Origin: Tubulanus polymorphus
Taxonomy: Eukaryota > Animalia > Nemertea
Length of the DNA stretch: 64,000 bases
Direction: 5' to 3'
NCBI RefSeq assembly: GCF_964204645.1
Contig: NC_134025.1
Location: 17,087,101-17,151,100, forward strand
Both the position numbers and the translations under genes were made by a program. The number at the start of each line of letters is the position of its first letter. Position 1 is the first letter of the stretch. The notes beneath the pieces are model-generated. The model saw only the letters and a program-made list of their open reading frames with translations, did no database searches and was not told the origin of the DNA. Shown piece by piece: positions 8,049-62,734 of the stretch.

Positions 8049-8532
8049 TGCGACACGGATATTGCAAATGGTATGATTTTGATATCAAGGAACCGAAATG
8101 ACTTATCAAAAGCAGCGAGGAATGAAAAAGGATGACGTTAGTCGAAGATGAACAGACGGAAATTATCAAATAGATTTCAAATAAAAATATAGCTGCAAAG
8201 CAGCGATACCGGGTTTTCTGAGCAGGCGTGCTATTCATAGTTTGAAATGAAGATAATAGAAATATATCAATACGGGATACGCATTTGATGTGTCAAGTCA
8301 CACCAATGCGGTTTAACATAACATAATTTATAGTTATAGTCAAATTGGGGGTTGTTAAGACTAACGACTGGTTAAAATCCCTAACGAGTCGTTACTTAAA
8401 CACTCGTTTAAAGACTGTTTAGATCGGTTGCTCAAAGACTGTTTAAGCCTTTGGTTAACTAACGAGTCGTTATCTTTTTTTTAACTGGTAGTTAAGTCCT
8501 AAACAGTGTTTAGCCTCATTTTCAAAATCAAA

Positions 8533-9682
8533 ATGGCTGCAAACATGGAATCTGTGTCAGTTAAACCTGCTCAACAAAACATTAGAAATAAAAGAAAAAC
8601 TAATTTCAGTGTAAAAGAAATCGATCTGTTAACTAGCCTAGTGAGAGAAAACTACGATTTATTGACCAGCAGCTTCACTAACAGTGTTACAAATCGGAAA
8701 AAAACATGGTAAGTGGGTGGAGATAAGTAAGTCAGTGAGTTCTCTTGGAATTTGTGAGAGGACACCTGCTGCTGTAAAGGAAAAGTGGCGGCAGCTTTGT
8801 GTAATTGCCAAGGCCACAGTAGGAGGCTATCAGCGGGAGAGCCGGAAAACTGGAGGAGGACCTGCACCTACTCAGCCAGCACCAGTTATCAACGAGATTA
8901 TTGCCATTCAAGAAGAGCGAGGGAATCCATCCTTTTTTGGAATAGAAGGTGGTGTGGAAACTACCTTTTTGAGCGATTTAACAACTATTGGTGAGTTAAT
9001 CTATCGTGTATCATTTTATTCAAATACTATTAAAAGGGCTTTTAATGATTTTTGGGTCTAATTTGGTAACATATTTTCAATCGTCTGCTTTTGTTTTGGT
9101 TTCTAGCCAACGACCTTCAGACCGGCTTCTAGTGACTGTGATTTAGTTCGCACATCAGAGCTAATTAAAGCCCTCTGGACTACTGATTATTTAAATGCTT
9201 ACATTTAGATACTTAATGTCTGATATGAAAATCAATGCTAGATTCCGGCCATTATAACTGTTAACTTAGGCAACATGACAGTCATGTACAGCAAAGGTCA
9301 AGAAGAACCTAAAACTACTAGTGGAGGGTGTACCAAAATTGCGGTTACGGATTTGGAATTTGGCTCGGTCCAATTCAATTCTATGTCAATCAGCTTTTTA
9401 TTACCTCATCTTACTCAGTGGGTTGATTTCTCATTTTCAGATGCTTATGAATTACAATCGCTGATTGACAGCCATTCGGAACCAGCGCCGAAAGTTACAG
9501 AGGAGCAAGAGAAGCTGACACCTACGCTGCCGGAGTCAGTAGTAGCAAAACTGCCAAAACGGAGGAAGTTTACCACTGATGACCGATTGCAGCTTCAGTG
9601 CGAGTTGCTGGTTGTCCAGAAAGAAGTGGCAGAACTCCAAAAACAAAAATTACTTCTGGAAATTAGGAAATTAGAAAAATAA
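8533..9682 (+). pseudogene. Harbinger Myb/SANT-like DNA-binding protein (spliced, frameshift near 8700)
   Basis: RKTNFSVKEIDLL...W.EI...RTPAAVKEKW...RKTGGGP; donor GTGAGT at 8991; C-terminal coiled-coil exon 9441-9682. Confidence 0.8.
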
Positions 9683-9781
9683 TTTAAAGATTCCGTTTCA
9701 TGTTTATAATTATCCAATACAACGTATGATTTAATGTTTTTTTCAATTTTATTAAAGATTGTTCCCATGATTAGATTGATT

Positions 9782-11017
9782 TTAGTCATTGAAATGCCTG
9801 GCCGCAAATCTGGCTCTGAATGCCACGCCATCAACATTTGGTGGTGCAAAGACGTCACCAAACTCCATTTCGTCGACGACATCTGCGGGCTCTGGTTCAT
9901 TCAACTGTATAGCTATGTTGTGTAGTATGGCACAGCACAAAATGATCTTACAGACACGTCCGGGTATCATTCTTATTTCTCCGTTTAGAATGTGGAATCG
10001 GCGTTTAAAGATTCCAAAAGCCCTTTCTATGATGCTTCTGGTACTTTTATGAGAGTCGTTGTACCTTCTCTCTGCCCTTGAGTGCGGATGTAAAAACGGA
10101 GTAAGCAGAAACCTCCGGCACGCATATCCACTATCTCCTAAAATGATGCCATCATATTCTGGATGTGCTTCCAAATATCTAAGAAAGAAAAAATCAGCCA
10201 TCCCTAAATCAAGTTGTGAGTTATAGATGGTGAATGGTTCTAAGCTTCAATAAGAAAAGATTCCAATGATTGATAGCAATTCTCAGTCAAATGGACTTTT
10301 TCTTAGATTTCGACTCATGGGAAAATTATTTTCCTTCTGGTTTTTCCAATAACGTAACACTTAAAAATATGCAAGAATTGATCTCTGTGAAAAGTTATTT
10401 TTATAGTTCATAAATTACAGAAACAAGGGAGGGCGAACACATAGTTCAAGTGAGACGGAGACATTCATACCTGCTGATTGGAGATGATCGGAATATATGA
10501 CTATCATGAGTCGATCCAGGCCATTTTGCAATGATGTTGGTAAATCTTGCTGGAAAGAAGAAAAACAGCGTGATCAATAGGCCTACTAATAGACATTTTT
10601 TACGTATAATGACTGAGGGTTAAGTTTGACACAAACATAAGTAGGGTATGCTTCATGATGGTAGACCTATCTTGGGATTCGAACCAGTATTGAAGCGGGG
10701 AAGATTAGGGACTGTATAGTGGCGCCTTCTACTGTAATGCTAAGACTGAGATAAAACTGTCGCTTGCTGCATCTAGTCGCAAGTACCCGGAAATATATAA
10801 ATTACGGGAGAAACAAAACATTAACTGGGAATAATATTTTACCTTTGTGATCACATATTGCCTGAACATTGATGCTATGAAAGCTCTTTCTGTTGACGAA
10901 AGCTGGCTCATTTTCTGTTGGAGCCTGAATGCGAATGTGCGTACAGTCGACGGCACCAACAACGTTCGGAAATCCGGCCAGATCATAAAAGCCTCTCTTC
11001 AGGTCATTCAAATCGTC
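9782..11017 (-). pseudogene. HARBI1-like DDE transposase, 3 exons, 5'-truncated
   Basis: Exons 11017-10843, 10549-10471 and 10178-9782 with phase-compatible GT-AG introns; motifs [37 protein letters not shown]. Confidence 0.9.
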
Positions 11018-11424
11018 AGTAATAGGGGTAATGGGCTTTCAAATCAAAGGTCGAACGGTCGAGCTCATTAAAAAACAAAACATTAAAAGTAATTTAAAAC
11101 TATAATATATTTTCATAACCGTGTGCATTTTATATTATAACTAAATATTTATTCTAAGATATCAATAATTTAAATTTTAAATGCATATTGTATTAAATCA
11201 ATTGGTCGCTCCACTTCGCTACCGCTCCGCGACCAATTGATTTATTTACAATACACAAATTCATATAATCAAATATATTTTAATAATAATTATTATTCTA
11301 TTATTCAACTGAAATACACACGGTTATGAAAATATATTATAGTTTTAAATTACTTTTAATGTTTTGTTTTTTAATGAGCTCGACCATTCAACCTTTTACC
11401 TGAAAGCCCATTACCCCTATTACT
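11018..11424. repeat. 407-bp terminal palindrome of element B
   Basis: AGTAATAGGGGTAATGGGCTTTCA...TGAAAGCCCATTACCCCTATTACT with long complementary arms and a central CAATTGGTCGC...GCGACCAATTG stem. Confidence 0.9.
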
Positions 11425-17893: not shown

Positions 17894-17937
17894 GATATAT
17901 AAATATTTTTATAGATATATAGATAGTTTTACAATAA

Positions 17938-31311: not shown

Positions 31312-31317
31312 CTTATT

Positions 31318-41874: not shown

Positions 41875-43053
41875 TTATATAATAAAAAATTTAAAGTTAA
41901 AATATAATATTCCTCCGATTACAATTCCTATACTAGTTATAGCTAATTTAGCATTTTCATGGGATTTATTATCATCATTAGTTTTAATTATTTCATGTTG
42001 AATATTATCAGTTTTTATATCTTCTGTAGTATTGTAATCTTTTATTTTAGAATCATTATTTAATTTAATATTCTTAGTTTTAGTTTCTGTTGATTGAATA
42101 TGTTTTTTATTTTTTTCACCTTCCATTAATTTTGGAGCAGTGATAATCTTTTTGTTTATATCATTTAATCCAAATGAATTATTTATTGTTGCAGTTTTAA
42201 TTAGATTATTATAACCAATTATACTTCCCATCTTTAATACTAAATCATTAGAAATAATTAATGGATTATGGCCTATACAATCATTTAATCTAATATGTGA
42301 TTTATCTAAATAATTTTGATATCTTACTATATTTTCTGGAATCGATCTATTTTTATCATTATGAATGGAATCTTCAAATAATACTTTGAATTGTTTTTGT
42401 GTATCAAATGAAGTGTTATCATTTCCAACTATTGGTGATGTTGTTTCAACTTGCGGACCTAGAATACATATCAAATAAGTTCTAATAGATTGATTTATTC
42501 TTTGTATACCTGATTTTGTAAAACCTTCACTATTTTCTAAAATAAAATTAATCCATCCATTATTGTTTTGTTGTTGTATATTATTATAATATTTTGGTAA
42601 TTCATTCCATAATAGTGTTCTTATATCTGTATTTGTCATTATTTTTCCAAATTCTTTAGTATATAATATTCCTAATCCACCCATTGTTCCAATTTTTGAT
42701 CTAAAATCATTATTTGAATTAATATTAAATTCATTACATATTTTATAAAACTTAGAAAAATTAATATTATTATTTAGTTCATTAAAATATTTTGAACCTG
42801 GTAAAGGACATTCTAATTCATCTAATATTAATTTTATTTGAAAATATGTATGAAATCTAAAAAGTGATAACATCAATGGTAAACTTGGTTTTTTTAAATG
42901 ATCATTCCAACTTATACCACACCCTGTTGTTGCGCAATAAACAGCAAAATTTAATTGGTTCTGCCAATACTTCATATTAGATTTTAATGACCATTGTTTT
43001 GCCTCATTTAAATTTTTAAAATTAATTGTATACACATGAAATATATTTTCCAC
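41875..43053 (-). CDS. Conserved Polinton-like hypothetical protein (about 400 aa, C-terminal TM)
   Basis: WQNQLNFAVYCATTGCGISW.DH, FRFHTYFQ; frame open upstream to about 43170 but ATG lost; homolog at 62735-64000. Confidence 0.7.
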   Translation of the reverse strand: MENIFHVYTINFKNLNEAKQWSLKSNMKYWQNQLNFAVYCATTGCGISWNDHLKKPSLPLMLSLFRFHTYFQIKLILDELECPLPGSKYFNELNNNINFSKFYKICNEFNINSNNDFRSKIGTMGGLGILYTKEFGKIMTNTDIRTLLWNELPKYYNNIQQQNNNGWINFILENSEGFTKSGIQRINQSIRTYLICILGPQVETTSPIVGNDNTSFDTQKQFKVLFEDSIHNDKNRSIPENIVRYQNYLDKSHIRLNDCIGHNPLIISNDLVLKMGSIIGYNNLIKTATINNSFGLNDINKKIITAPKLMEGEKNKKHIQSTETKTKNIKLNNDSKIKDYNTTEDIKTDNIQHEIIKTNDDNKSHENAKLAITSIGIVIGGILYFNFKFFII

Positions 43054-43204
43054 CTTAACATTAAAATTATTACTTTCAGTAACATAAATATCTAAATCAA
43101 TTAATGAATTAAAAACTTCATTTCTATATGAAATATCTTTATTAAAATCTATTGCATTTAATTGATTTATTATATTGGAAAGCTTTTAGAAAAATAATTA
43201 AAAA

Positions 43205-45019: not shown

Positions 45020-47483
45020 TTAACACGTTATAATCCTGTTCATTATTTCCTTCTCTTTTGTTTCTTCTCTTTTAAATCTTAAGTATTCATCTAAATTACA
45101 ACCATATGCAACTGTGTGTATACCATCATCTAAAATATATCTTTTATCATCAAATGGGTTTAGACTGATCTTCTCTATCTCTTCAATAAACATTTCATGA
45201 TCTTCAGATCTTAAACATCTCATCTTATGTTTTCTAACTTCTTCATTGAATATACAATTGATGTAGTCTTTGAAATGAATATTCTTTTCTACTACGCTTT
45301 TGGTAATTCCTTTTAACTTTTTAGATTCATGAGTTTTAGTTTTATATGAATACATTTTAGATTTAATACCAATGAATTCAATCATTTCTTCACCACCCAA
45401 TTCATCCCGGGAACTTTTTTATTATCATTGCTAAACAATTCATGATCTTTAATTCATGATGTTTTTAAATCATCAGTTATGTTATTAGTTTTTAACTTTA
45501 ATATGTAACTGTCAGTATCAAAATATAAGATTTGAAAATTGATTGTCTTAGCTTGTAAGTTACAATTCTTATGTGCTGCGCCTCTAAACTTTCCATTCAA
45601 ATGATCATGGTCTCTAACCTTTTTACCTTTTAGATTAAATGTCTTTTCACAATAATAACATTTATCTGCAAACTCAAATGCTTCTTTATCTTCTTCTGTC
45701 ATAATTATTTCTTTATTTGTATCTAATAGTTTACTAAATTTTATTTCATACTCGATTAATAAGTCACAAAAATGATTGATAACATTTTCATTTCTATAAT
45801 GATAATATTCACTTTTAATTAGTTCTGGATAATCAGATTTTATATATAACCCGAAAGCTGCAGCTGATTGATGAATCTTTTTAATAGTATTTGTTATTAG
45901 GGGATCTGAATAGTCAATTATATCATTTTCATTAGAATTTAATTTCTTTCTTTTATGATATATTTCTTTTCTATCTTGATCAGTTAATTCTTTATTTGAT
46001 GATTCAAAATCTCCATATATAACAAATGGTACTTTATTCTTGTAATCATATTTTTTGAATTCTAATATTTTATCCTTTTGCATTTGGTAAAACTATCTTA
46101 CAATAATCATGATTATCACATAATTGTTTATGATTTAATAATGCACTTTCAGTTCTCAATTTATGTAAACATTTTCTACATAGATATATTTCATTATCAA
46201 AATCATTTTCTGATTTAAAAAATAAATCGATTTGTTTAATCCACATATAATGATTTTCATAATATAGTATATCTATAACATCATTTGAATCATAATCTTT
46301 TGATAGGTATAAAGGTTCTAATGTATAATGTTTTATATCGTTACCTTTCTTATTTGGTAATTTGATTAGATCGAATACATTTATTTTTAGATTATTATCT
46401 CTTTCTATTTTTGGGATATTTTTAATTCTAACTGGATAATTGTCTGTCTTATAATTATTTTCGAATTGTTTATAATTTGTTAATTTAAAACTATGTGTAA
46501 TATCTTCTGTTGGATGTAAGCAACTAATTATTGTCCATAGAAAACATTTATCATCAGAATTTTGTACATTTATAACAGCATTTGTTTTAAATGGTATTTT
46601 GATATAACTTGATCCATTTATATTATCATGTTTATAATATGATGAATTATTTACATCAATTGGTTTTGATTTAGTTAACTTATTATATTTTGTGTTATAA
46701 ACGTGTAAACTCATAAATATTATTTCATCGAATATTAAACCAGATCCTTCAAAATATTTCTCTTCTATTTTAGTTTTTACTTCATTATAACATTTATCTA
46801 ATTTATCATCTATATGTTGTTTTGAAATAATATGTTGTGAATGAGAATGTATATTATATATTGGTTTATCTTCAGATTTTATAAACTTTACTTTAGAAGA
46901 TATGCTAATTTTAGGGTGTTCAACATCTGTGATTATTTTTACAATATTTTATATATTTTCTAAATTTTTTTTATTTTCTTCTAATGTTTTTCCTTTATGA
47001 AATTTAAACTCAATAGCTGCTGGACCATTATCACTTTTAAATGCTTCGGTTATCTATTTCCTTTTTATTATCTAATGAATTAATATAATTTCTTACATCT
47101 TCCATGTATGGTCTTTTATTGCTTAATTTATTTTTTATTCTTTTAATTGTCTTCTGTTTCTTTTCATTATCATTATCAAAATAATCCTCACCTAAAATCA
47201 TTATTCTTATTTCTAATATGACTTTTAGATTTTAAATGTTCTTTATAATATCTTTTCTCACTGAATGATTGATTATATGTATCACATTTGTATGTTTCTT
47301 TTTCATTCTTTAATTTAGTTTAACTTTAGTTTTGTTTTTCTCTAATTTAGTTTCTAATATATCATCTTTATTTTTTAACTTTAATTTATTTTCTAAATGT
47401 GTTCTAGTTTTATTGTGTCTTGCTTTTTGGGATTTATCTATATTGATTTTACATGTTGAACAGTAGTACTTATTTGCTTCCAT
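45020..47483 (-). pseudogene. polB: Protein-primed PolB of element A, intein-free, large internal deletion
   Basis: DDKCFLW..HYMW, YGDFES (ExoI), VRDHDH..RGAAH..CNL, then a jump to YFDTDSY, KSKMYSY, KKLKGI, LNPFDDKRY. Confidence 0.92.
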
Positions 47484-47714
47484 TTTAATACTAAATTTTT
47501 TATTAAAATTGATTTTAGAAGTTATTCATTTATATTTTATTCATGTATATGAATATTTTAAGAGTAATAGGGATAATAGGGGTTCATATCAAAGGTCGAA
47601 AGGGCGGGCGAGTAAAAAATGAAAAATAAATTCGAGTGTGCGAGAATTTATTTTTCATTTCTAATGAGCTCGACCTTTCGACCTTTGGTATGAAACAACT
47701 TATTCCCTATTACT
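47440..47714 (-). repeat. Right TIR of element A
   Basis: Ends CCCTATTACT followed by GGTAGC; internal palindrome 47563-47714. Confidence 0.9.
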
Positions 47715-48530
47715 GGTAGCACACCGAGTGCCTCCAAGACAACTAAAATACGACGAGAAAGGAGTTAAACAACCGGACAGAATAATTGTGCGTTTTTTCG
47801 ATCGAAAGAGGCGGAATTTTATCATTCGGAAACGTGCGACATTAAAGGATTCAGGGATTATAATACGCGAAGATCTTTGCCCTGAAATTGCGAAACTAGT
47901 TAATCGCGCGGTTAACTCGAGACTATATAACAAAGTGTGGACAGTCATTGGAGAAGTATTCGGTTGCACTGAGAATGGTGAGAAAAAAAGAATTAACATT
48001 TTCAAACCACTGCCGAAGTAATAGCAGTACCGGTAATTAACTAATTGTGACTAACTAACTTTTTTCCTTTCTTCATTCGTTTATGCGTTATACATTGTTA
48101 GCAATACAGGTATCTCTAAATGGATCTTACCAATAATTCAAATATTTGGTCAAACTTTCAGAATTACCAAATTATTGATATGTACATATTAACTTACCAA
48201 TCCTAATATAGATCCGTTTGGTTTAAATAATAACCCAAATGCTTTTCTGGGTAACCAGACTAAATTATCATGTTTTTGCTAAATGCTTTTGCTATATGTA
48301 TCATCTATTCTCAACTCATATGAAAAGTTCAATGAAACTCAATACACGCAATATTACAACTTGTTCTGTAATACATGAATATGAATTATATTGGTATCTG
48401 GGGATCTTAGCTAAAGTTCTATTTTTGAAAATTTTAGTAAAAAGAAATGTGTTTAGGTAATACAGATCCAGAGAGCCGCATTAAAAACATAAGAAACAAT
48501 CCCAATCTATTATTAAATGTATTCGGCGAT
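47715..48530 (+). mobile_element. LINE ORF1 C-terminal half and downstream sequence
   Basis: VAHRVPP...PDRIIVRF..RK...LKDSGIIIREDL...VWT..G; ORF ends at 48021. Confidence 0.75.
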
Positions 48531-48614
48531 AGTAATAGGAAATGTGTTGTTTCATACCAGAGGTCGAAGGTCGAGACACCACTCATCACCACAAGTATTT
48601 TTTTTCCCTAATAA

Positions 48615-51600
48615 ATGGGGGAGAATGAACACCAGCCAGAAAATAATAATGTTAATAAAAATCAATATTATTGCCAATATTGTAAAAAATACATCGATAA
48701 ATCCCAAAAATCACGACATGAAAAAACTGCAAATCATATAAAAAATGTATTAGATTTTGAAACACTAGATAATACAAATGAAAGAAAAGAACGATTAGAT
48801 GATATGAATGTGGATGAAATAAAATGTGAAGTTTGTGATGAATTTATAACAAAAAGGAATTATAATAGACATCTCGAATCACAAAAACACCATCACAATT
48901 TGAGTAATAATGTTTTAGGAAAAGATTATTTCGATGATAAACCTCAAAAAGTAAAAAAACCAACTTCAAAAACTAAATCTATTTCAAATAAACCTTACAT
49001 GGAAAATGTTAGAAATTATATTGATTCACTAGAAATAAAAGATACAATTGAAATATTAGAAACATTACGTAGTAAAATTGGTCCTGCAGCTATTATATTT
49101 AGATTTTTTAAAGGTACAACAATAGAAGATTATAGTAAATTTAATGAAATAATAGAAAAAATACTAGATTTGATAACAGATGTTGAATATCCAAAAATTA
49201 GTATCTCTGGGAAAGTAAGTTTTTTAAAGTCAGAAGATAAAATGGATTATACTATTCAAACACTCTCTGAAGAAATAATTTCAAAAACACAAATAAAAGA
49301 GAAGTTAGAAAAAATATTTAATGAATTTAAACGTCATATTGAAGAAAGATATTTTGAGGGTTCTGGCTTAACATTGAATGAAATTATATTTTTAGATTTA
49401 AATGTTTATAATACAAAAAGAAATAAAACATCAAAAAGTAATAAAATGTTTAAAAATGATTCAAACTTTAAAACAGAAAAGGAGGATATTAAAGGATCAT
49501 CTTATATTAAATTACCATTTACAACAAAAGCAGTAATAAATGTTCAAAATGAAGATAATAAATGTTTTCTGTGGCCAATTACTAGTTGCTTACATCCAAC
49601 AGAAGATATTACACATAGTTTTAGAATAACAAATTACCGGAAATATGAAACATTATATAAAATTGATCAATATCCAGTAACTATAAAAATGATTTCTAAA
49701 ATAGAAAAAGTTAATAATTTGAAAATAAATGTATTCGAATTAATGCAATTACCAAAGACAAAAGGTGAAAATATTAAAGATTATACATTGGAAGCTTTAT
49801 ATTTAACAGAATATTATGATGATGGAAATGTTATAGATTTGTTATATTACAAAAAAGATGAAAATGAACATTATATGTGGTTAAAACAAATTGATTTATT
49901 CTTTAGAACGGAAAGTGATCACCATAATAAAATTTATCTATGTAGAAAATGTTTATCTAAATTTAGAACTGAGAATGCGTTACTAAAACATAAAGAATTA
50001 TGTGATAATAAAGATTTTTGTAAATTAATAATGCCAACAGAAAAAGATTATAAATTGAAATTTACTAATCATAAATTTTAGAATATTGTTCCATTTGTAA
50101 TTTATGGGGATTTTGAATCGTTGAATAAAGAATTAACCGATCAAGATAGAAAAGAAATATATAACAAAAAGCAATTATTAAAATCAATAGATAAAGGAAA
50201 TGAATTAAATGAAGACACAACACAAGACCCACCAATTATAAATACAATTAAAAAAGTTCACCAAAGAGCTGCTGCTTATGGAATTTACATAAAATCAAAT
50301 TATCCTGAATTATATGAAAGTCAATATATTTCTTTTAGAGGTGAAAATGTAGTTAATGATTTTAGTAACAAAATAATTGAATTAGAAAGTGATTTTGCAG
50401 AATTATTAAACAAAAATAAAAGAATAGTTATGACAAAAGAAGATGAAATTGATTTTAATTATGCAACTCATTGTTGTTATTGTGAAAAACGTTTTTATTC
50501 ATTTGATAAAAAAGTTAGAGATCATGATCATTTAAATTCAAAATATCGTGGAGCTGCTCATGAAGATTGTAATTTACAAGCTAAAAAAGTAAATTTCGTT
50601 CCAATGTTATTTCATAATTCATCCGGCTATGATACCCATCTATTTATAAAACAATTATCGGGAAAATTGGGCGCAATTAATCAAGAAATAGAAGAATATA
50701 ATGCTATGAATGATGTAAATGTAAGAAAATATTATTTTAAACTATTAGCTACAACATCTGAAAATTATATTTCATTTCAATTGGTTGCATTAGATTTTTA
50801 GATTCTTATAGATTTCTAGCAAGTTCATTAGATAATTTATCAAAAAGTTTAGTTGATAATGATTTTATAATAACTCGATATTATTATCCAAATGACCAAG
50901 ATTTTAAATTATTGAGATATAAAGGCGCAATTCCTTATTCATTTTATAAAACACACAATGATTTTAATGTAACAGAATTATTAAAAGATCAATTTTGTGA
51001 TCAATTAAAAGAGGAGTATGTAAAAGACGAAGTGTTAAATAGAACATTAAATATTTGGAAACATTTTAAGATGAAAAATCATGGCGAATTAGTTGATTTA
51101 TATTTAAAATCAGATGTTATGATATTGGCTGACATATTTGAAAAATTTAGAGAAGTTAATTTGAATCATTTTAATGTTGATCCTTGTTATTGCTACTCTA
51201 GTCCTGGTTTAACCTGGCAATGTGGTTTAAAATACACAAATGTAGAATTAGATTTATTAAAAGAACCAGACATGGTTTTATTATTTGAAAAATCAATTAG
51301 AGGTGGAATTAGTGGTGTTATGGGAGATAGATATTTTAAAGCAAATGATGAATATAAATTATTATATATTGACGCCAATAATTTATATGGTTGAGCAATG
51401 ATGCAACTTCAACCATACAAAAATTTTATATTAACAGAAGTTGAAAATGATGATAAAACTGATTGGGAAAGCGCAATTGCGAGTTTAAAAGATGAAGCAC
51501 CAATTGGTTATTTCTTTGTAGTTGATTTAGAATATCCTGAAAATATAAAGTTTAAGACAAGAAACTTACCTTATTGCCCAGAACATTTAACCGTAGATGA

Positions 51601-53676
51601 TAGTTATTTAAGTGAATACCAGAAGAAAATAAAACCGAAAGATCATGTTTTTACAGAAAAATTAATACTTACTCAAAATAATAAATACAATTATATTGTT
51701 CATTATAGAATGTTAAAATTTTATCTAAAACAAGGAATGAAATTAAAGAAAGTACATAGATATATTGAATTTAATCAACCGAAGTGGTTAGAAAAATATA
51801 TAGATTTCAATACTCAACAGAGAACCATATCAAAAACAGATTTTGAAAAAGATTTCTTCAAATTAATGAATAATAGTTTTTATGGTAAAACATGTGAAAA
51901 TATTACAAATAGAAATGATATTGAATAAGTAAATAATTCTGAACGATTAAGACATTTACAATCAAGTCCTAGACATTTAGGAAATAAAAGATTTGAAGAT
52001 TATTTAACAGCAGTTAAATTAAAAAGAACGTTTAATAAACCTATATTCATTGGTTCAACTGTTTTAGAAGTATCAAAATTATTAATGTATGATTTTTATT
52101 ATAATGTTTTACTACCACTTTTTGGGGAAAAGCATATTGAAATATTATATTTTGATTCTGTAACAGCTGACACCCCAATATTATTAAAATGTAATGATAA
52201 AATATTAATGAGAAGAATTTCAGAAATAATTCCAAAACAAAATGAATGATATATTTCGTATGGTGAAAAAGAATTAATACAAATAAATGAATTAATGGAT
52301 GTTTGGACAAGAAATGGATGGAAAAAATTAAAGAATATTATTAGGCATAAAACAAATAAGAAAATCTATAGAGTTAGAACTAAATTAGGGTTTGTAGATG
52401 TTACAGAAGATCATAGTTTAATTAAACGAAATGGTAATGAAATAAAACCAACTGATATAAAAATTGGAGATGAATTATTACATAAAAGATTTTTCCAAAG
52501 AATGAATCATATGTCATTTGATAAAATAAATGATAATATTTATAATATAGAACCCGAAACATTAGAAGAAAAAGAATATTTTATCAAAGGATTTTTTATG
52601 GGAGATGGTTCAGCAGGTGTGTATAAATATGTTTGGGGTAATAAATATTGATGGTATTTATGCAATCAAGATTTGATATTATTAGAAAGAATTAAGAAAT
52701 TCTGTGAAGAAGTTTATCCAAATAAAACATTTAAAATCATGGATGTTATGAAATCATCAGCAGTTTATAGAATACTTGTAAATAATCCTAAAGATTTTGC
52801 TATAAAATATAATGATGAATTCTATATCATGCAATAGTGAAAAGTAATACTTCAACTAAAGAAAAGATAGTTCCAGATTATGTATTAAATGCAAAAAATA
52901 ATTTAAGAAAGTGGTTCTTCATTGGATTCTATGCCGCAGATGGCACTAAAAAATTTACAAAGGATAAAAAGATAACCTTTGCACAGAAAGGAAAAGTTGC
53001 TATATCAGGATTAAATATATTATGCATTTCATTAGGATTTAATATGAATATAGAATTAATTAAATCTAAACCAAATTGTTTTAATTTAAGGCATGTAGAA
53101 AAAGAATTAACAGAAGAAGTTAAAGATTTATTTGAAATATATAACCTATCAGATTATGTTTATGATTTATCAACTGAAGATGGTACATTTAACTGTGGAT
53201 TTCCATTAATTGCAAAAAATACTAACAGTTACATACTAAAAATCAAGACAAATGACATAACAAAAGACTTAAAAACATTAAAACATCATTTTGATTTTAG
53301 CAATTATCCCAAAGATCATGAACAATTTAGCAATGATAATAAAAAGATTCCTGGTAAGTTTAAAGATCAATTAGGGGGTGATGAAATGATTGAATTTGTT
53401 GGGATAAAAAGTAAAATGTATAGTTACAGAACAAAAGATCATGAAGCTAAAAAGTTAAAAGGAATAACAAAACATGTGGTTGATAAACATATAGAATTTC
53501 AAGATTATATAAAGTGTTTATATAACTCAATTGTAATGAAACACAAAATGAATTGTTTAAGATCAGAAGATCACAAGATGTACATTAATGAAGTTGAAAA
53601 AACTAGTTTGAATCCATTTGATGATAAAAGGCATATTTTAGATGATGGTATAAAAACATTACCTTATGGCCATTAA
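48615..53676 (+). pseudogene. polB: Full-length protein-primed PolB with intein; several stops and frameshifts
   Basis: Zn fingers, DNKCFLW..HYMW, YGDFES, HNSSGYD, YLKSDV, YIDANNLYG (A), KLMNNSFYGKT (B), YFD|intein|TNS (C), KMYSY, PFDDKRH. Confidence 0.95.
52157..53220 (+). mobile_element. Intein with LAGLIDADG homing endonuclease (decayed)
   Basis: N-terminal SVTADTPILL, block B VDVTEDHSL, endonuclease motifs FIKGFFMGDGS and FFIGFYAADGT, block F YVYDLSTEDGTF, C-terminal KN followed by +1 Thr. Confidence 0.93.
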
Positions 53677-53951
53677 AACAGAAAATCAATATCATCATGC
53701 TCGAAATCACTATTGGCTTCTTCATTTTCATTTAATTGTTCTTGTATAATTTGTTTAGGTTCTTCCATTTCATTTTTCTCATTTAAATAAAGTTCTATCT
53801 TGTACCACATTTCATATCGCTCTCTTTGTTTCTTTTTGTTTGTTAATTCGTCAAATTGAATTATAATATCGATGTTTAAATAATTTACAATCTTATTTAA
53901 AAAGAATTCATAATTAATTGAATCTGTTATTCTATTTTCCAAATGATACAT
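53673..53951 (-). CDS. Small hypothetical protein
   Basis: 92-aa ORF; DSI.YEFFLNKIV remnant also at about 3325-3365. Confidence 0.45.
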   Translation of the reverse strand: MYHLENRITDSINYEFFLNKIVNYLNIDIIIQFDELTNKKKQRERYEMWYKIELYLNEKNEMEEPKQIIQEQLNENEEANSDFEHDDIDFLF

Positions 53952-53969
53952 TAATATTTGTTTGAATGT

Positions 53970-54340
53970 TTATTTTATATTTTCCGTATCTTCTGTTAAT
54001 TTAGGTTTTTCATAATAATCGTTAAATAATAAATATATATACATTTTCTTTTGTTTTGTGTTAAATTTTGATGGAATAATTGTTTTTATAATATCTTTTT
54101 TAGTTATTTCACCATTTTTATTTTCTATCATTTTCATTTTTTCAAGCCATTGCATATATTCTGGTGTATGATCTTCTATAGAAAATGTTTTAAAAATTTC
54201 ATCTAGATACTTTAATTTTGGTTCTATGACAGAATCTCTAGTTTTTTCTTCACCCCATAAATTCTTTTGCCATCCACATTCATTACAAAATAACACAGTA
54301 CCTTCTTGCCTTAAGGTCGCATAATTACATTGTGGGCATT
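53970..54340 (-). CDS. Small CxxC-containing hypothetical protein (may be the 3' part of the Zn-finger gene)
   Basis: CPQC...FCNECG..NLWGEEKTR; decayed homolog at about 2900-3300. Confidence 0.5.
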
Positions 54341-54347
54341 TTTGTTT

Positions 54348-56137
54348 TTAATTTATTGGTAATAGATCTTCATTAAGCTCCTGGTATTTTCTTACGTTTT
54401 CTTTATGTTTTATTGTTCTATTATGTAGATTTGAATTACTTGTTGTAATAATCAATTTACAATATTTACAATAATATGTTTTTCTTGTTAATTCATTATA
54501 TTGTTTTTCTAACTTTTCAACTGTTTCTTTATCTGGTAACGTTTTCTCATATTTTATTTTTTCTAATAAACTATTTTTTCTTTCATTGATTTCTGCTTCA
54601 ACTTTATTAGAAATTTTATCTATATGTACTTTACGAAATTGATGATTCTCCCAATCTTCTATATTTTCAGCGGTGTTGTCATATCGCGGAAAGACGGAAT
54701 CGCGGAATTTTCCAAAAACGCGGAATTTCTTCATTCTTACTTTAAATAGAAAACGGGTTTTCCCACGGGGATACCCACTGTCGGACAGGGCACCGGACCG
54801 ATCGATGCAACGAGTTAGGTTCGAGTCCCATTATTTGCAGGCAATTTTATATGGAATTATTATATCACGATACCGTTGACTGGCTGCCACCTGTAGAAGA
54901 AGTCAGAATCAAGTGGGGTGAAAGAGACCAGGCACCTAATGTCTATTTCTACTGGGCAAACTTCGGTTATCGAAGTTCATCGACTTTTTGAGAACTTCAG
55001 AAACGAATATTATCAGATAAATATTGAGCACGTTCGCGGTGTCGGACCGTAGTTGTAGATGGTTGCAAACATGAAATCCTACGACCAAACAAGAATCGGT
55101 TCAAATTCCTTCGTCAAATTCGTCCAGTACCGGTACCAATGAGATTCTTTTGATCCAAATAATCAGCATAGGAACATATATGTTATAGCAGTCACAAAGA
55201 TAACATTAAAAAAACGAAACCATTTTATAATCTTTCATATCATTTAATTCTAAAAGATAAACCACATTCGCTTATAACAACAATGTAGACACACAACACG
55301 CATGAACAATCCTAAGCCAGAATGAAATGTACATAATGTCTATTTATTTTCGTCTGACATCGATCCAGTTCCACAGTTGTGAGTTAACTCTGAGTTACTT
55401 AGAATCAATTCATTTCCAATGTTTTAAATCCAGAGACCAGAGTCAAATCTTAACTCGGAACTGAGTCCTGGAGAATGACCCATGGTGTCATCAAAAATCC
55501 TACGTTTACGTACCATCGATTTGTATTCCTTCAGTTAATGCAGCGATACTCTGTATCACTGAATTCGCAAAGCACGTATTGCCTAGGTTCTACATTATTT
55601 GGAACAGTATCGTTAAGTTGTTGACTGGCGATATAATAAATTATCAAATACTAATTCCCGTGGTTGAAAACCTGGGTCCGATGCCCTGTCCGACAGTGGG
55701 TATCCCCGTGGGAAAACCCGTTTACTATTTATAGTTAAAATGAAGAAATTCCGCGTTTTTGGAAAATTCCGCGATTCCGTCTTTCCGCGATATGACAACA
55801 CCGTATTTTCAGGGTTATATTTTTTTCGACAAGGCTCACAGAAATGATCTTTTATATTATCCTTGTCATAGGATAAGAAAGGTCTTTTCCAAATAATTTC
55901 AGGTTCAACTTCAACAGAATTACTATTACTTTCGTTACTATCAACATTAGCCGTTGCGCCATTAATTTTACACTCCTCTGAATGTTTTTTAACATAATTT
56001 CTTGAGAATAATTTATTACATTTTGGGCAGTTTAGTTTAGGGGGTTTATAATTTTCATCATGTTTTTTCATATGTCGAGCCATATTACTTTTTCTTAGAA
56101 GTTCACCACAAATTTCGCATGGTATCTTCTCATCCAT
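54348..56137 (-). pseudogene. Multi C2H2 Zn-finger protein split by a MITE
   Basis: CEIC..RHMKKH, CPKC, HFCEPC..NPEN|MITE|IEDWENHQFRKVH, YCKYC; rejoins in frame when 54671-55812 is removed. Confidence 0.8.
54671..55803. mobile_element. 1.13-kb non-autonomous TIR transposon (Mutator-like by TSD)
   Basis: About 127-bp TIRs starting CGGTGTTGTCATATCGCGG; 9-bp TSD TATTTTCAG (54662-54670 and 55804-55812). Confidence 0.88.
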
Positions 56138-56205
56138 TTATTTAGGAAAAATTTTATTAAAATTAATTTTTAGTGATGAGCGGTAATTTTTTTATGTTAT
56201 AAATA

Positions 56206-56358
56206 ATGGTAGAATCAAAAGAATACAGAATATTTGTAGATTCTAGAAGACTTACAAATTATAAATCACATAATTTACTAGTTCAATTAGATAGAGAATT
56301 TAAGAATTGTGTAGATTTAAAATTAGTAAATATAAGTTTATGTAATTCTTTTTATAAT
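56206..56358 (+). pseudogene. Probable penton (minor capsid) N-terminus, cut by a Polinton end
   Basis: RIFVDSR...LVQLDREFKN..LKLVNISLCNSFYN resembles single-jelly-roll penton starts; abuts AGTAATTGG at 56359. Confidence 0.5.
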
Positions 56359-56443
56359 AGTAATTGGAAGATGTGGGTTTCATACCAGAGTACGAGAGTA
56401 CTAAACACCACTCATCACCACAAGTAATTTTTTTTCCTAATAA

Positions 56444-56755
56444 ATGGGAGATAGAAAAGCATTCTTAGCAACAATAAATAACAGAATAAAACCAGCAAAA
56501 AAACAATTTGAAATAAAAAAGTTAGTTGATGTTACAAAAGAAATTGAACATAAAATATTGAAATTAGAAAAGATAAAAACTAAATATGGAGAGAAAGTAT
56601 CAGTGAATTTAAGCTACTGTAATGTTAGTACATCGCGAGAATTTAAAGTGTTTTTACCTGATAAATGGGTTTCATTGAGTACAGAGGAATTAAAAGATTT
56701 AGAAGGATTTAAAATAATATATCATGGAAAAAATGAAGATGGACTGATGATTTAG
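56444..56755 (+). CDS. Small hypothetical protein, homolog of 4388..4741
   Basis: Shared KYG.K..FLPD....LS.E.L..L...IY.GKNE pattern. Confidence 0.6.
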   Translation: MGDRKAFLATINNRIKPAKKQFEIKKLVDVTKEIEHKILKLEKIKTKYGEKVSVNLSYCNVSTSREFKVFLPDKWVSLSTEELKDLEGFKIIYHGKNEDGLMI

Positions 56756-56957
56756 AAATTGTTGATTAAATTTAAAAAAATAAATTAATAAAAATAATGA
56801 ATATCTAGAATCCGAAATGACTTATCTGGACAATTTAATTGCTCCGCATAGATAGACAAAAGTAGTGAGATGGTGCCGTATGGCACCCACATGGTGATAT
56901 TCAATTAATATTCAATTAATTTAAAAAAATTATTTTTTTTGCTTTTTTTCTAAAGTA

Positions 56958-57326
56958 TTAATCCATTTTTTTTATTGTCAATTTTGGAATTTCAGAAGTA
57001 TTTTCACTTTTAATAGCAGTTGTTTCAGGATTATAAATATCATGAATTTTATTTGATTTCTTATACCAATTACACCCAATCAAAATGAATACAATTACAA
57101 ATCCAACTGTAAAATATAGACATTTATCAAATATTCTATTATTAGAAGGAGTAGAAATAACAATATTTTCACCATTTTTATTAACATTTTTATTACTTAT
57201 TTTTTCTTTTACAGCTTTTTTATATTCTTGTGATTTAATTCCTAATTGCCGAGACCATTCAATTTGTTTCTGTGATCTCGGTTTTTTCTTCACAGTTAAT
57301 TCCTTCACTTCTTTCACCTCGCTCAT
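56958..57326 (-). CDS. Small basic TM protein
   Basis: KKKPRSQKQIEW, TM segment; homolog of 15508..15876. Confidence 0.72.
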   Translation of the reverse strand: MSEVKEVKELTVKKKPRSQKQIEWSRQLGIKSQEYKKAVKEKISNKNVNKNGENIVISTPSNNRIFDKCLYFTVGFVIVFILIGCNWYKKSNKIHDIYNPETTAIKSENTSEIPKLTIKKMD

Positions 57327-57864
57327 TTATTATAGAAATATTTTTACTTTCAATATTTGAAAATGTTATAACCCCAGTTGATAATAATGTCATAAATCCG
57401 CCTAATTGAAATGATAAATATCCAATCCATTTATTTAATTCAGTCATAACTAAATAATCATTTTTTAAATCAGCGTATAATCTATTTTCATCTTGAATTG
57501 GCAGCATATAATTACATAATTTACTATAACCTTTTACTACATTTTCTGATATCGCGTCATTAATTCTAGCTGTTCTCGCGGCTTCATAAATCTTAAATAA
57601 TCTAATAATTTCATCTGATTTCATTGTGTCTAATTCATTATAAGTTAAATTTTTACCGACAAAATTTTTACATTTTCCAGATGCTATTAATATTTCTAAT
57701 TGATGTTTACAGTAAAGATAATATTCATAATTATTATTTGTTGTAACATTATTTAAAGCACCATCATCTGGAATTAATTTGTTTTCTGTTATTCCTAAAT
57801 CATCTAAAGTTTTTTCAATTGGAACATCACCATTTTTAGATTTTATTTTCTTTTCACCTACCAT
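57259..57864 (-). CDS. Conserved Polinton hypothetical protein (201 aa)
   Basis: Homolog of 31678..32286. Confidence 0.78.
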   Translation of the reverse strand: MVGEKKIKSKNGDVPIEKTLDDLGITENKLIPDDGALNNVTTNNNYEYYLYCKHQLEILIASGKCKNFVGKNLTYNELDTMKSDEIIRLFKIYEAARTARINDAISENVVKGYSKLCNYMLPIQDENRLYADLKNDYLVMTELNKWIGYLSFQLGGFMTLLSTGVITFSNIESKNISIINERGERSEGINCEEKTEITETN

Positions 57865-57889
57865 TTATATAACAAATAAATTAGTTGTG

Positions 57890-58262
57890 TTGTTGCAACT
57901 AGAATTCAACTAGAACGTAACTAGAATTCAACTAGATTAACAAGCTAGTTGAAATATTGTTGTTTTTATTTATTTCTTGTTAAATCTAGTTGATTTTTGT
58001 TCCAACTACCAATAACTAGAATTCAACTAGAATGTAACTAGAATTAAACTAGATTAACAAGCTAGTTAAAATATTGATAAATCTAGTTGATTTTTTTCCA
58101 ACTACTAATAACTAGAATTCAACTAGAATGTAACTAGAATTAAAATAGCTTAACAAGCTAGTTAAAATATTGATAAATCTAGTTGATTTTTGTTCCAACT
58201 ACTAATAACTAGAATTCAACTAGAATGTAACTAGAATTCAACTAGATTAACAAGCCAGTTGA
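57890..58262. repeat. About 96-bp tandem repeat built of AACTAGA subunits
   Basis: CCAACTAC.AATAACTAGAATTCAACTAGAATGTAACTAG at 58002, 58098 and 58195. Confidence 0.85.
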
Positions 58263-58264
58263 AT

Positions 58265-58874
58265 TTAAATAAATTCATATTTAAATGGTTGTTGTAATCT
58301 AAATAGTAATTTTGATCTTTTAATATTTTTCAACTTATCCATATATTCATTATGTAAAATCATGTGGAATAATATCATTTTCCTCAAGTGCATTTTTCAT
58401 CGATTTTCTATCTTTATTGTAGAATAAAACTAGAAATCTAATGTTTTCTCTAAAGTCTTTAACAATTGAATTATATTTTTGATTTAAAACCCATGTTGTT
58501 ATCCCAAAATGTTTGCCAGAAAAAGCTATATAACATAACTCACTTTCTCTAATTTTTGAATCATGTAAATTTGCACAATCATCTATAATGAATAATGTAT
58601 TTGATCCTTTATAAATATCTATTGCTATTTTAATACAATTATCTAAATTTTCTTTTACTGTTTTAGGATCTAATATAATAAATTTATTATTTCTAGTAAT
58701 ATTTCTATCATAAGTTTGATTAAATTCATATGTTGGACAAAATAATACTATATTATCAAAATAGTTTTTATAAACATGTTCTAATAAATTTAATATAAAA
58801 TAAGTTTTTCCACAATTTGTTACACCAGAAATTAACATATTATGAGGCTCAAATATAAATAATTCCTTATTCAT
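58265..58874 (-). pseudogene. Packaging ATPase with late frameshift
   Basis: GVTNCGKT, LFIIDD; frame breaks near 58355. Confidence 0.9.
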
Positions 58875-60001
58875 TTATATATTTTTAATTTTACTTGATA
58901 ATATCCATTCATTGAATTTATTTGGCCATCCAACCCATTTTACTAAAGAATATTTTTTTCTTTTAACAGTTTTTGTTTTTAATACTTTTTCAATTTTATA
59001 TTCTTGTTCTAGATTTTCAGTAGTTAAACTCAATTCTTCTTCATAAAAATACCCATCAACTTCTTCACCATCTAAATCTTCTAATTTATAGACATATGGT
59101 TTTGTTGTTATTACCTTTTTTATTTTATATATTTCTCTAGTAAAATTTCGATCGTATCCTTTGTCAAATATCTTTTTATACTTAGAAATTCTAACATTTT
59201 GACCAACTTTAAATTTAGGTTCACCAAAATCATCTACAAGAAATGCTCCATATAAATTATTCCAAACAATTTCAGCATTTTCAGGTTTTCTAGCATCAAT
59301 AGGTTTCATTCCAATAGAAGAATGATAAGAATTATTATATCCTATCAATTTTGGTAAAACATCAATCCATTTAAAAGTATTATTTGCTGTAAAATATTTC
59401 CACATTCTTGTTCTTAATGTTCTATTAAATCGTTCAACAACTGCTGCTTTTTTATCTGATTTTGTTGAAAAATATTTAATATTATGATTGTCTAAGAGTT
59501 CATGAACAAGTGAATTATCAAATTCTTTTCCATCATCAAATTGTATTTTTTCTGGTTTTAGTTTATCATCCGAAAGAAATTTTCTTAAAACATTTGATGT
59601 TTGTACAGCATCTTTTCTATAAATTGGGAAACTCCATACATAACGACTAAAAATATCAATTATATTCAATAACCACCAATAATCATCATTATCTTTCTTA
59701 ACATTTTTCATATCAATTAAATCTCCTTGCCACTGTTGATCTACATAACTTACCATAGTTTTACGAGTTTTATATTTTCTAACAATTTTTTTATGTGTTG
59801 TGTATGTTGGTTGTTCTAACATAAATTCATTTATATCTTTATATTTAACTAAATTGTGTGGGATTATCTTAATCTAATTTATCTTGTTTTACTTTACGCC
59901 ATATATTTTTGGTAGAAGAATAAGCAACCGAACTCTCAGGGTTGTAATATAAATTTCTTAAATATTGTTCTTTAGTATTAGGAGTTTTTTTTACCTCCCA
60001 T
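58875..60001 (-). pseudogene. int: rve integrase with complete chromodomain; 5' frameshift
   Basis: WQGDLIDM, QFDDGKEF, VERFNRTL, YKIEKVL..LVKWVGWPNKFNEWI; original ATG at 60001. Confidence 0.92.
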
Positions 60002-60031
60002 TTATATATCGTTAATTTTAACTTTATATTT

Positions 60032-61279
60032 CTAATATTGAATACTATCTAACTGTGAATTTACAATATTTAATTGTGCATCAGATATAATATAAATGTG
60101 CATTTTAAAATTTTTGTCTCCTCTTTTCTTTTTCATGAATAATTGTATTCCGTCTTTAGTGTTCTGTAGTTTTTTCCCAGAACCATGTAATAAATTATCT
60201 TCAGTTATTCTGAAATCTAACCATAATGAATATTTATCGCCGGTGTAATAATCAATTTGATTAATATTACAATTTTCAAATGATTTTACTTTTTCATTCA
60301 TAAAATGTTTTCTAATTTCTGGCCACTGATCTATCATTCTCATTCCTTGACAAAATATTTTATTTGATATTCCTTCGATAGTTATTTCTACTTTTGTTAT
60401 TTCAGGATTATAATAATTATCTACCTTTATTGCACCATTAGAATATGTTGCAATGGTAAAAAATATTAATATACCTTTAATAGATCTTCTTGGGAAGTTA
60501 ATATTCTCATTAATAATTTCATCATTTGCATTAATAGTTACAGTTTTAAATTTATCAATATAATCATATAATAATGAAAATCCTTGATTGTATTGAGTTT
60601 GAATTGTGCTAGCAATATTTTCATCAGTTACTGTATCATATTCTAAACATATATTCGATAATTTATATCCCATATCTTTAACAACGCTAGATAATACAAT
60701 TTCATTTACAGGAGCAAATGTTATCTCAAATATAATACCTTCTTGAATTGAGTATTTATATAAAGGTGCATTATTATTTATCAATTCAAAATCTAATGGA
60801 ATTTTATATTTGCTTCCATAAATCTTTTTTATCAAATTATCTGTGGCACGAGTTACTATTGCGTCATTAGCTCCTGATCTTAATTTATTATGGTTTTCCG
60901 ATTGTATCCCCTGAAATATCATATTATTTCTATTTTCTTTAGTTAACCATAAATCTTTATAATGCATAAATAAATTATAATCATCTAATGAGAAAACTGT
61001 TTCTGGTCCAATCTTTATAGTTAATTTTTTAATCAAATATCTCCCAACATTATTAACAACATAATTATTATCATGACCAGTTACTTTTATATCAGCTGAT
61101 AAATAAATACTATTTGGAACATAAAAAGTATTTTGTGTTAATCGAGGAATTCTAACATATAAAGTTTCATCGGGATTAATATTTGAAGGATTATGAGTAA
61201 TTATATGATGTGATCTTTCTGCTTTAATAGCATTAGATATTCTAGAAATCTTAGAAGGACTTATATAACTCCCACTCAT
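60032..61279 (-). CDS. Putative double-jelly-roll major capsid protein, intact 415 aa
   Basis: Size, beta-strand-rich pattern (L.VRIP, IKKLTIKIG, YKIPLDF, LSNICLEYD, KVEITIEG), position beside integrase and ATPase; resembles Polinton-like capsids; fold not verified. Confidence 0.75.
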   Translation of the reverse strand: MSGSYISPSKISRISNAIKAERSHHIITHNPSNINPDETLYVRIPRLTQNTFYVPNSIYLSADIKVTGHDNNYVVNNVGRYLIKKLTIKIGPETVFSLDDYNLFMHYKDLWLTKENRNNMIFQGIQSENHNKLRSGANDAIVTRATDNLIKKIYGSKYKIPLDFELINNNAPLYKYSIQEGIIFEITFAPVNEIVLSSVVKDMGYKLSNICLEYDTVTDENIASTIQTQYNQGFSLLYDYIDKFKTVTINANDEIINENINFPRRSIKGILIFFTIATYSNGAIKVDNYYNPEITKVEITIEGISNKIFCQGMRMIDQWPEIRKHFMNEKVKSFENCNINQIDYYTGDKYSLWLDFRITEDNLLHGSGKKLQNTKDGIQLFMKKKRGDKNFKMHIYIISDAQLNIVNSQLDSIQY

Positions 61280-61299
61280 TTATTTAACAAAAAAATTAA

Positions 61300-62718
61300 T
61301 TATTTATTTTTAATCATATTCACTAACCCAAAAATTATAGCACTTACAACTGTAATTAAAAATAAAATAATATGTTCAGCAGCAAAGTTAAGAATATTAC
61401 CTGCAGATTTCAATATAAAACCAACAATTGATGCAATAATTCCTGGTAAAGCTGCAGCAGATTTTTTAGATAGTTCCCATAAATATTTTGCTAATTTCTT
61501 TAAACCATCCTTAACTTTATCTTGTATAGAATTATTACCTGGGGGCTTATCCGGTTTATTTGGAGTAGGAGTAGATTTTAAAGCATTTGATATTGCTAAA
61601 CCAATTGTTGTAAATAACATAGTTACAGCTGTTAGAATTGAAAGAATTGTTATTCCTTCTAATTTATATAATAACTTTATTCTATCTTTCAATGATATTT
61701 CAGAATTTGGTTTTATCAATAAATCTTTAAAAATAACTTTTAATCTATTAATATTATAATCATATGATTTTAATAATAATTTAATTTCTTCTTTCTGTAC
61801 TTCTAAATTATCTTTTAAATTATTAATTTCTTTTTCTAAACGTAATTCTTTTTGCCTATATTCTATTTCATCAATTACTTGATGATCTAAATCAGACTTT
61901 ATTTGTTCTATTTCTTTATTTGCATTAGTTAATTCTTTTTCCAAATACATAATTTTTTGATCTCTTATACTTTTATTATGTGCAATTTTATCAGCTTCAT
62001 TTCTTATACTAATAATTTCTCTAATTGCTTCATCAGAAAATATATTTAAATCTTCTAATTGTTGATCTGTTGCATCAAGTAATCCATTCGGTAAAAGTTT
62101 TTCAATTGGAACTTTATTTGATTTAAGTTTACTAGTTTTGGAAGTTATATTCTGTTCAGAAGTTGTTTCTGTTTCTGATTTCTTTTTGATTATTTCAAAT
62201 AATTCATTAATTCTTTGTTTAAATACGTCTATATTATCATCTATTTCTTTTTGCGTAACATCAGTTATTTCATTACTATTACTTATTATTTTAATTTTAT
62301 CTGGTTCTAATTTTGATTCTGCTAATATTTTATTTTTATTATTTTTATAAGTGATATCAATATAATAATCACCTTTCAAACGATAATAACATTTACCATC
62401 TAAAAATTTTAATTGATCTGCTAAAAGTCCAACGTCTTCATCATTTATGTTAAGTTTAGATTTTTCAATTAAATCTTCTAATTTAGGTATTTTGTTTAAA
62501 TTATCTAAATCTTGTTTTACTAAATCTGGGTCTAAATTTTCAGGATTTAATTGTGATTCTGCATTTTTAATATAATCAGGCATATTCAAATTATTATTAT
62601 ATTCTGGCTCATTACCATCATTAAAACTTGTTTCATCAAAATCAGGTGGTTGTTCATCAGTTATGCCAGGTTCATCAAAATTATCCATTCCAATATCTTC
62701 TCCACCTTCTACATCCAT
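61300..62718 (-). CDS. 472-aa coiled-coil protein with C-terminal hydrophobic helices
   Basis: Acidic N-terminus, long coiled coil, GITILSILTAVTMLFTTIGLAI, ALPGIIASIVGFIL, IILFLITVVSAIIFGLV. Confidence 0.75.
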   Translation of the reverse strand: MDVEGGEDIGMDNFDEPGITDEQPPDFDETSFNDGNEPEYNNNLNMPDYIKNAESQLNPENLDPDLVKQDLDNLNKIPKLEDLIEKSKLNINDEDVGLLADQLKFLDGKCYYRLKGDYYIDITYKNNKNKILAESKLEPDKIKIISNSNEITDVTQKEIDDNIDVFKQRINELFEIIKKKSETETTSEQNITSKTSKLKSNKVPIEKLLPNGLLDATDQQLEDLNIFSDEAIREIISIRNEADKIAHNKSIRDQKIMYLEKELTNANKEIEQIKSDLDHQVIDEIEYRQKELRLEKEINNLKDNLEVQKEEIKLLLKSYDYNINRLKVIFKDLLIKPNSEISLKDRIKLLYKLEGITILSILTAVTMLFTTIGLAISNALKSTPTPNKPDKPPGNNSIQDKVKDGLKKLAKYLWELSKKSAAALPGIIASIVGFILKSAGNILNFAAEHIILFLITVVSAIIFGLVNMIKNK

Positions 62719-62734
62719 TTATATAATAAAAAAA

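Follow-up and report, generated by a model that had tools for sequence, protein, structure and literature searches.

The window, by which we mean the whole stretch of DNA that was analysed (64 kb, no N), is a patchwork in which decayed pieces of Polintons stand beside a large inverted duplication and a Harbinger transposon (Table 1). In one of the Polinton pieces, here called element C, the coding sequence of a family B DNA polymerase (PolB) is interrupted by an insert of 1064 nt, which lies between EILYFD and TNSYILK, begins with Ser, ends with Lys-Asn and is followed by Thr at position +1. The extein scores 58.1 bits against PF03175 (cutoff 25.8), which places the host among the protein-primed PolBs. 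This polymerase is itself broken outside the insert, by stops ending at 50081, 51394 and 51928 and by a frame break near 50780, and the Asp position of its motif C holds Asn (53224-53226). The three polymerases nearest to it (P0290-P0292) are empty at the site.

Table 1. Features of the 64-kb window that surround or make up the polymerase insert of element C (window positions).
Feature	Positions	Strand	Remarks
PIF/Harbinger transposon	8503..11038	.	served as host marker
PolB remnant of element A	45023..47474	-	empty site 45517/45516; 1.54-kb deletion joined near 45537
Terminus-like motif	48531..48622	+	upstream of the polymerase; direct copy (85%) at 56357-56451
N-extein of element C PolB	48615..52156	+	Polinton-type, protein-primed; zinc finger, endonuclease VII-like insert, PF03175 core; broken
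Intein coding region	52157..53220	+	Hint splicing domain with inserted LAGLIDADG endonuclease; from profiles, relatives and the fold of the intact relative P0004
Block A	52157..52180	+	Ser1 at start
Block B (TxxH)	52397..52420	+	same in 8/8 inteins tabulated
Block C, first LAGLIDADG motif	52589..52612	+	acidic residue retained
Block E, second LAGLIDADG motif	52924..52944	+	acidic residue retained
Blocks F and G	53158..53220	+	Lys-Asn at end
C-extein of element C PolB	53221..53676	+	+1 Thr; TNS at motif C of this copy
A32 ATPase, rve integrase with chromodomain, putative major capsid protein	58350..61279	-	Pfam

The rve integrase and A32 ATPase genes lie 5-7 kb from the interrupted polymerase, with the copy of the terminus-like motif at 56357 in between. 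We read this motif as a putative element terminus; no long partner arm for the motif at 48531 was found within 47400-64000. The integrase/ATPase/capsid block is 75-90% like element A, another Polinton piece of the window: over 57200-64000 the likeness is about 90% across the capsid gene and two unknown ORFs and about 75% across integrase and ATPase, a pattern that could reflect either a recombinant or two abutting elements. The putative major capsid protein matches PF16903 below its cutoff (E 0.0067), and no Pfam match to a cysteine protease or a minor capsid protein was obtained among the scanned ORFs. Two long ORFs common to the Polinton copies (61300-62718 and 62735-63790; 40114-41127 and 41875-43185) have no Pfam family above cutoff. 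The inverted duplication (14678-24279 against 29619-38904, 86-95% identity) holds Polinton integrase and ATPase genes and, inside it, about 5 kb with no Pfam match. Fold-back units of about 150 bp at 6857-7009 and 47563-47714 have ends that match the terminus-like motif at 48531, and are possibly miniature non-autonomous Polinton derivatives or hairpin ends. An inverted 129-bp pair (54671-54799 and 55675-55803, 96% complementary) shows very high read depth and many loose ends, and is likely a high-copy non-autonomous transposon inserted into element C.

A preliminary description, made from the letters alone, had taken the insert for a homing-endonuclease intein at the YGD/TDS site used by known PolB inteins, and had listed its ends, two LAGLIDADG-like motifs, two TGA stops and a frame break. 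All of these are present, the stops at 52247-9 and 52649-51 and the frame break near 52826, so that the copy is indeed dead. The proposed search against Hint and LAGLIDADG profiles also bore the identification out, with likeness well above what chance would give. The first 224 residues of the insert, with X at stops, score 32.6 bits against TIGR01445 (intein_Nterm, cutoff 24.5); PF14890 matches below its cutoff in C (E 1.8e-5) and above it in P0003 and P0320, and the block E region gives PF14528 at E 0.012 in C and above cutoff in P0001, P0003 and P0005. The insert matches PI-PkoII by sequence (E 5.5e-5), and its two halves are 63% and 65% identical to the 354-aa intein of the intact 1693-aa polymerase P0001 and 44% and 34% identical to the mimivirus PolB intein P0032. 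The Ser of block A, the TxxH of block B, the Asp of block F, the terminal Asn and the +1 Thr are all in place. In the structural model of the intact relative P0004, block pLDDT is mostly 87-98 over the intein (72 in one block) and below 55 elsewhere, and the best matches of the model are TliVMA, PhoVMA, PI-PkoII and PI-PfuI (E 1e-16 to 2e-13), with the I-DmoI fold also matched. As far as sequence can tell, then, the insert is confirmed as a Hint plus LAGLIDADG intein at the YxD/TDS site of a protein-primed polymerase, and its kin are inteins of the same site. The penultimate Lys had been called unusual, a view that did not hold: among 229 delineated relatives ending before TDS-type motifs, 102 have Lys and 92 have His, and the mimivirus intein also has Lys. 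His, which is found in P0003 and P0320, is usual for class 1 inteins and not defining. The composition of the intein compared with its exteins gave no transfer signal (GC 0.242 against 0.241 and 0.258).

Nine Polinton-type clusters besides C carry the same intein (P0001, P0002, P0003, P0004, P0005, P0013, P0023, P0320 and P0332). Several of them are intact, and in the intact relatives the intein is in frame at the same site. The best five of the 232 matches are all protein-primed polymerases, interrupted at that site by the same insert; the other Pfam-labelled matches, among the best 120 of 232, are mostly PF00136 PolBs with a few topoisomerases. The P0320 cluster has 136 members, and the 15 listed include seven full-length proteins of 1537-1539 aa on contigs of 0.09-1.0 Mb; P0004 has 121 members. 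Blocks A, B, C, E, F and G are retained in all six full-length Polinton inteins tabulated. A search at 50% clustering, of which the best 150 of 1916 matches were used, added giant-virus-type hosts and three short P0002-like fragments (P0149, P0180, P0260). Among the 265 classified host proteins, 235 are RNA-primed PolBs and 11 are protein-primed (12 with P0005). No intein-bearing Polinton locus was found in viral contigs with P0004 as the query or in metagenome contigs with P0001 as the query; with the second half of the intein as the query, the viral contigs again gave no Polinton locus and one giant-virus match over 22 aa, and a phage collection gave one partial match (32% covered). One bacterial label, that of P0293, is likely a binning artefact. 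Related inteins (the set P0006, P0144-P0161, P0007, P0064, P0092, P0104) also occur in type II topoisomerases (DQD/TDG) and, in the same viral-type PolBs, at the motif-B site (xAN/S), and a further site lies just after TD; judged by sequence, these sites appear to show a non-allelic spread of the family.

The preliminary description had also reported the empty allele of the site nearby, in element A. The empty site stood: the PolB remnant of A is uninterrupted at 45517/45516, where it reads QILYFDTDSYILK, and it agrees with the flanks of C at 19 of 24 nt on either side of the site. Its allelic status did not, because A and C are only 70-72% identical in DNA, so that A represents another family. 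Element A also lacks about 1.54 kb (C 50596-52133), the edge of this deletion lying about 20 nt before the site; deletion and identity together rule A out as the empty allele of C. The match of the remaining flanks indicates that A derives from a copy that had no intein and belonged to a related family.

To look at the family beyond this one copy, we used raw whole-genome reads that bear the same species label and were generated in another study (12% of a run, 1.93 Gb, at least 85% likeness). Of 207 reads over the stop at 52247-9, 202 lack it; the stop at 52649-51 is missing from 191 of 225, the intein frame break from 150 of 181 and the motif-C change to TNS from 172 of 173. Since most reads lack each break, the breaks are largely private decay of the C copy. 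Reads span both intein junctions continuously. Empty sites that resemble the family of C, as that of A does not, come from these reads: 61 of them skip the intein in register, with four joints listed (18, 8, 30 and 5 reads), and for 38 of the 61 the codons just 3' of the site are given with different letters; given placement at 85% likeness, such empty reads may come from sister subfamilies. The flanking bins have depths of 432 and 557, and the two halves of the intein have 245 (first) and 156 (second), which suggests, very roughly, that 30-55% of the copies at this likeness are filled; an intein depth of about 245 amounts to about 13 filled copies in every 100 Mb of the genome. In a codon test on the 28 best-supported variable places of the intein, taken from the best 40 of 492 rows, 13 of 19 mid-frequency read differences fall at third codon positions (p 0.002), against 3 of 9 changes private to C. 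No single intact copy of the host species could be phased from reads or contigs. The polymerase is left at the single points 51117 and 53472 by 131 and 186 reads, which suggests common truncated or interrupted subfamilies.

Presence of the intein is patchy among the polymerases. Of the 119 nearest polymerase relatives of P0001, only 2 hold the intein; 84 have an empty site and 33 are not scorable. The filled P0124 and the empty P0127 do not differ at any of the 457 extein columns compared. On an extein tree of 73 rows the 12 intein rows need 11 changes, a number as low as that being reached in 228 of 500 shuffles. The 23 proteins examined in clusters P0320 and P0305 include seven full-length filled and seven empty ones. 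Filled and empty members of this family are 97-98% identical far from the site and 92% and 85.5% identical in the 60 aa on either side of it, where identity within the filled or within the empty class is 95-100%; 13 of the 22 differences between the classes fall within -10 to +45, a window of 55 residues (p 1.5e-12). Filled copies of the P0320 family read TDS and their nearest empty kin TDA, and the nearest empty kin of P0003 read TDG. Such site-centred divergence is the pattern expected from co-conversion, from target escape or from both. A very distant host is P0005, whose intein is 46% identical to that of P0001, with a best E of 0.015 between the two exteins, and is placed inside the Polinton intein clade at 99/95 in a 41-row tree and 93/89 in a 33-row tree. 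P0005 also has an insert that we take, by eye, to be VSR-like. The branching of the inteins within the main Polinton group largely matches that of the exteins, a pattern that vertical descent with losses gives as well. The earlier proposal that the intein spread by homing among Polinton copies is thus matched by indirect signs of several kinds in sequence, namely patchy presence, site-centred divergence, third-position bias and the 61 skipping reads.

The origin of the intein was approached with a quick tree of 87 rows and two careful trees built on hand-picked subsets (41 and 33 rows). Inteins at other sites from the same viral pool formed the root, and archaeal same-site rows were left out, as were inteins whose length fell outside 320-385 aa at the same site or 300-420 aa at other sites, the 80 of 140 same-site rows least like the Polinton set, the fragments P0149, P0180 and P0260, and the near-duplicates P0124, P0129 and P0138-P0143. 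The Polinton inteins are monophyletic throughout (11 rows at 99 in the 87-row tree; seven rows at 100/100 in the 41-row tree; six rows at 100/100 in the 33-row tree). When rooted with five other-site inteins, this clade is nested three starred branches deep among the same-site inteins of RNA-primed PolBs, and a tree in which the 22 same-site RNA-primed rows form a single clade is rejected (AU p=0.002). Two of the 12 rows of the sister group, P0008 and P0014, could be traced to giant viruses by matches at 100% to GVMAG contigs, and the other ten are PolBs of PF00136 type or classed as such by profile; support for the exact sister group is weak (93/81 in the 33-row tree, unresolved in the 41-row tree). 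The suggested affinity to giant viruses, and the direction of transfer, are therefore supported by the nesting and by the contigs of P0008 and P0014. Comparison of intein and extein trees, which the preliminary description had proposed, came out divided: the intein mirrors the exteins inside Polintons, and shows giant-virus affinity outside them.

The stem of the Polinton clade is long (0.45-0.54) and its main branches are 44-65% identical, so that the capture is old, and neither this host nor any animal need have been where it took place. A capture confined to this host does not fit a single old clade of this depth, and a recent one in this host is rejected on the same clade and stem. At the DNA level, 92 giant-virus sites share a median of 13 and a maximum of 16 of 21 nt with the site of element A; with so poor a match, the first jump needed relaxed recognition or another route, and the same point about site mismatch was made for mimivirus and archaea by Ogata et al. 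(2005; PMC549080).

Blocks A, B, F and G and the +1 Thr suggest that, in an intact precursor, splicing would take the standard Ser/Thr/Asn route (PMC7765530) and restore YxDTDS, the polymerase being presumably inactive until then. Empty motif-C sites elsewhere among the Polinton copies would be the target of the endonuclease, repair of the cut from a filled copy would transfer the intein with some flank, and empty copies with altered sites would persist. The trees would add one old transfer from an RNA-primed PolB of Nucleocytoviricota, followed by descent with gains and losses, and one jump into the very distant polymerase class of P0005. We consider it probable that the locus holds a broken Hint and LAGLIDADG intein, likely captured once from a giant-virus PolB, likely homing among Polintons and likely in an animal genome. 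With less assurance, we lean towards an actively homing, self-splicing lineage of giant-virus descent in animal Polintons, which would go through cycles of invasion, site escape and loss within genomes and jump between distant polymerase groups.

The agreement of intein and extein trees for C with P0001 and for the group of P0332, P0320 and P0003, together with the low number of filled relatives of P0001, would equally suit an old passenger, that is, an intein that entered a Polinton ancestor, still splices, is inherited vertically with occasional loss and no longer homes. We hold this to be unlikely, since both endonuclease motifs are retained in 6/6 full-length Polinton inteins despite 44-65% identity, identical exteins occur with and without the intein, divergence is centred on the site, the P0005 intein is far closer to that of P0001 than their exteins are, and precise loss would have been required many times. 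A giant-virus source likewise sits better with the data than a reverse or shared origin, in which Polintons or an unsampled third reservoir donated the intein to giant viruses, or both drew on that reservoir. The long stem and weakly resolved attachment of the Polinton clade leave some room for this, but the AU result for nesting and the great excess of RNA-primed over protein-primed hosts make it distinctly improbable.

The Harbinger transposase at 9785-10246 has 65 matches, all 56 named ones in animals, molluscs first, at 40-65% identity, and on this marker the host is very probably an animal, with the caveat that databases favour animals. The element could be real and its host a protist, fungus, oomycete or symbiont co-assembled with an animal, given that none of the 140 ORF pieces scanned in the window gave a host gene and that endogenous viral inteins are known in algae (PMC10710043). 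The wholly metazoan Harbinger matches and the copy number of the intein in reads of the same species label from an independent study speak against this, and we find it about as unlikely as the passenger. That the window is a mosaic of rearranged repeats might have pointed to an assembly chimera, and a Hint domain might have belonged to a host Hedgehog-type protein; both are practically negligible. The endonuclease lies inside the Hint domain, the GC content matches that of the exteins, and both readings are refuted by the continuous junction reads together with independent intact records that carry this insert at this position.

If the host is an animal, the intein family, which we still read as probably viral in origin and homing among Polintons, would bring cis-splicing, nuclease-bearing inteins into animal chromosomes through an endogenous virus. 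The family is also evidence, from sequence, that one cell once housed both Polintons and giant viruses. Filled, empty and site-altered copies in one genome make the homing cycle measurable within a single assembly. As an intein in motif C is tolerable only if spliced, its long conservation argues that these Polintons kept replicating. The intein of Chilo iridescent virus lies in ribonucleotide reductase.

That this insect virus has an intein is recorded in PMC549080. The survey of Green et al. (2018; PMC5784728) gives DNA polymerases as the most frequent hosts of viral inteins (67 listed). It lists Iridoviridae, Marseilleviridae, Phycodnaviridae, Mimiviridae and unclassified viruses, and its nuclear inteins are mostly fungal; unlike the case of C, no Polinton or animal nuclear intein is named in the available part of that survey. 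Nuclease inserts are known within Polinton polymerases, namely the HNH and VSR domains of pPolB2 (Jeong et al. 2023, PMC10748475; Krupovic et al. 2024, PMC11161782), and these resemble C in that respect. Krupovic et al. conjectured that they result from intein invasions, a conjecture for which the present family is a real case. The main texts of these two papers, as far as available, mention neither Hint nor LAGLIDADG, and the word 'intein' is absent from the text and supplement of Jeong et al., whereas C has a complete intein in motif C. The word also has zero occurrences in PMC8502044 and PMC8097293, and no intein in a Polinton polymerase came to light in the parts of the open full-text literature covered (including PMC12220804, PMC13768754, PMC5718144, PMC3671162, PMC11131425 and PMC12721341); earlier annotation is possible in sources beyond that scope, such as Repbase Reports, InBase, subscription papers or supplements. 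Nuclear inteins of Anaeramoeba and inteins of algal endogenous giant viruses (PMC10710043) share with C the flow from virus to eukaryote and the intragenomic spread; those hosts are protists and algae, and 'polinton', 'maverick', 'animal' and 'metazoa' are absent from the main text.

Among solved LAGLIDADG inteins, PI-PkoII, PI-PfuI, TliVMA and PI-SceI, from archaeal or yeast hosts, have a fold like that predicted for P0004, at 10-15% identity in the structural alignment. The closest described system is the PolB intein of mimivirus (APMV; PMC549080) at site III/pol-c, which shares with C the YGD/TDS position, the Ser start, the Lys-Asn end and the +1 Thr. Its blocks B, C and E are nearly identical to those of C, and inteins of uncultured giant viruses are closer still. 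Unlike the RNA-primed PolB of mimivirus (PF00136), the host in element C is a protein-primed Polinton polymerase (PF03175), carried in multi-copy integrated DNA. The intein of element C thus belongs to the known pol-c allele family; the class of its host protein is new, and its compartment is likely new as well.
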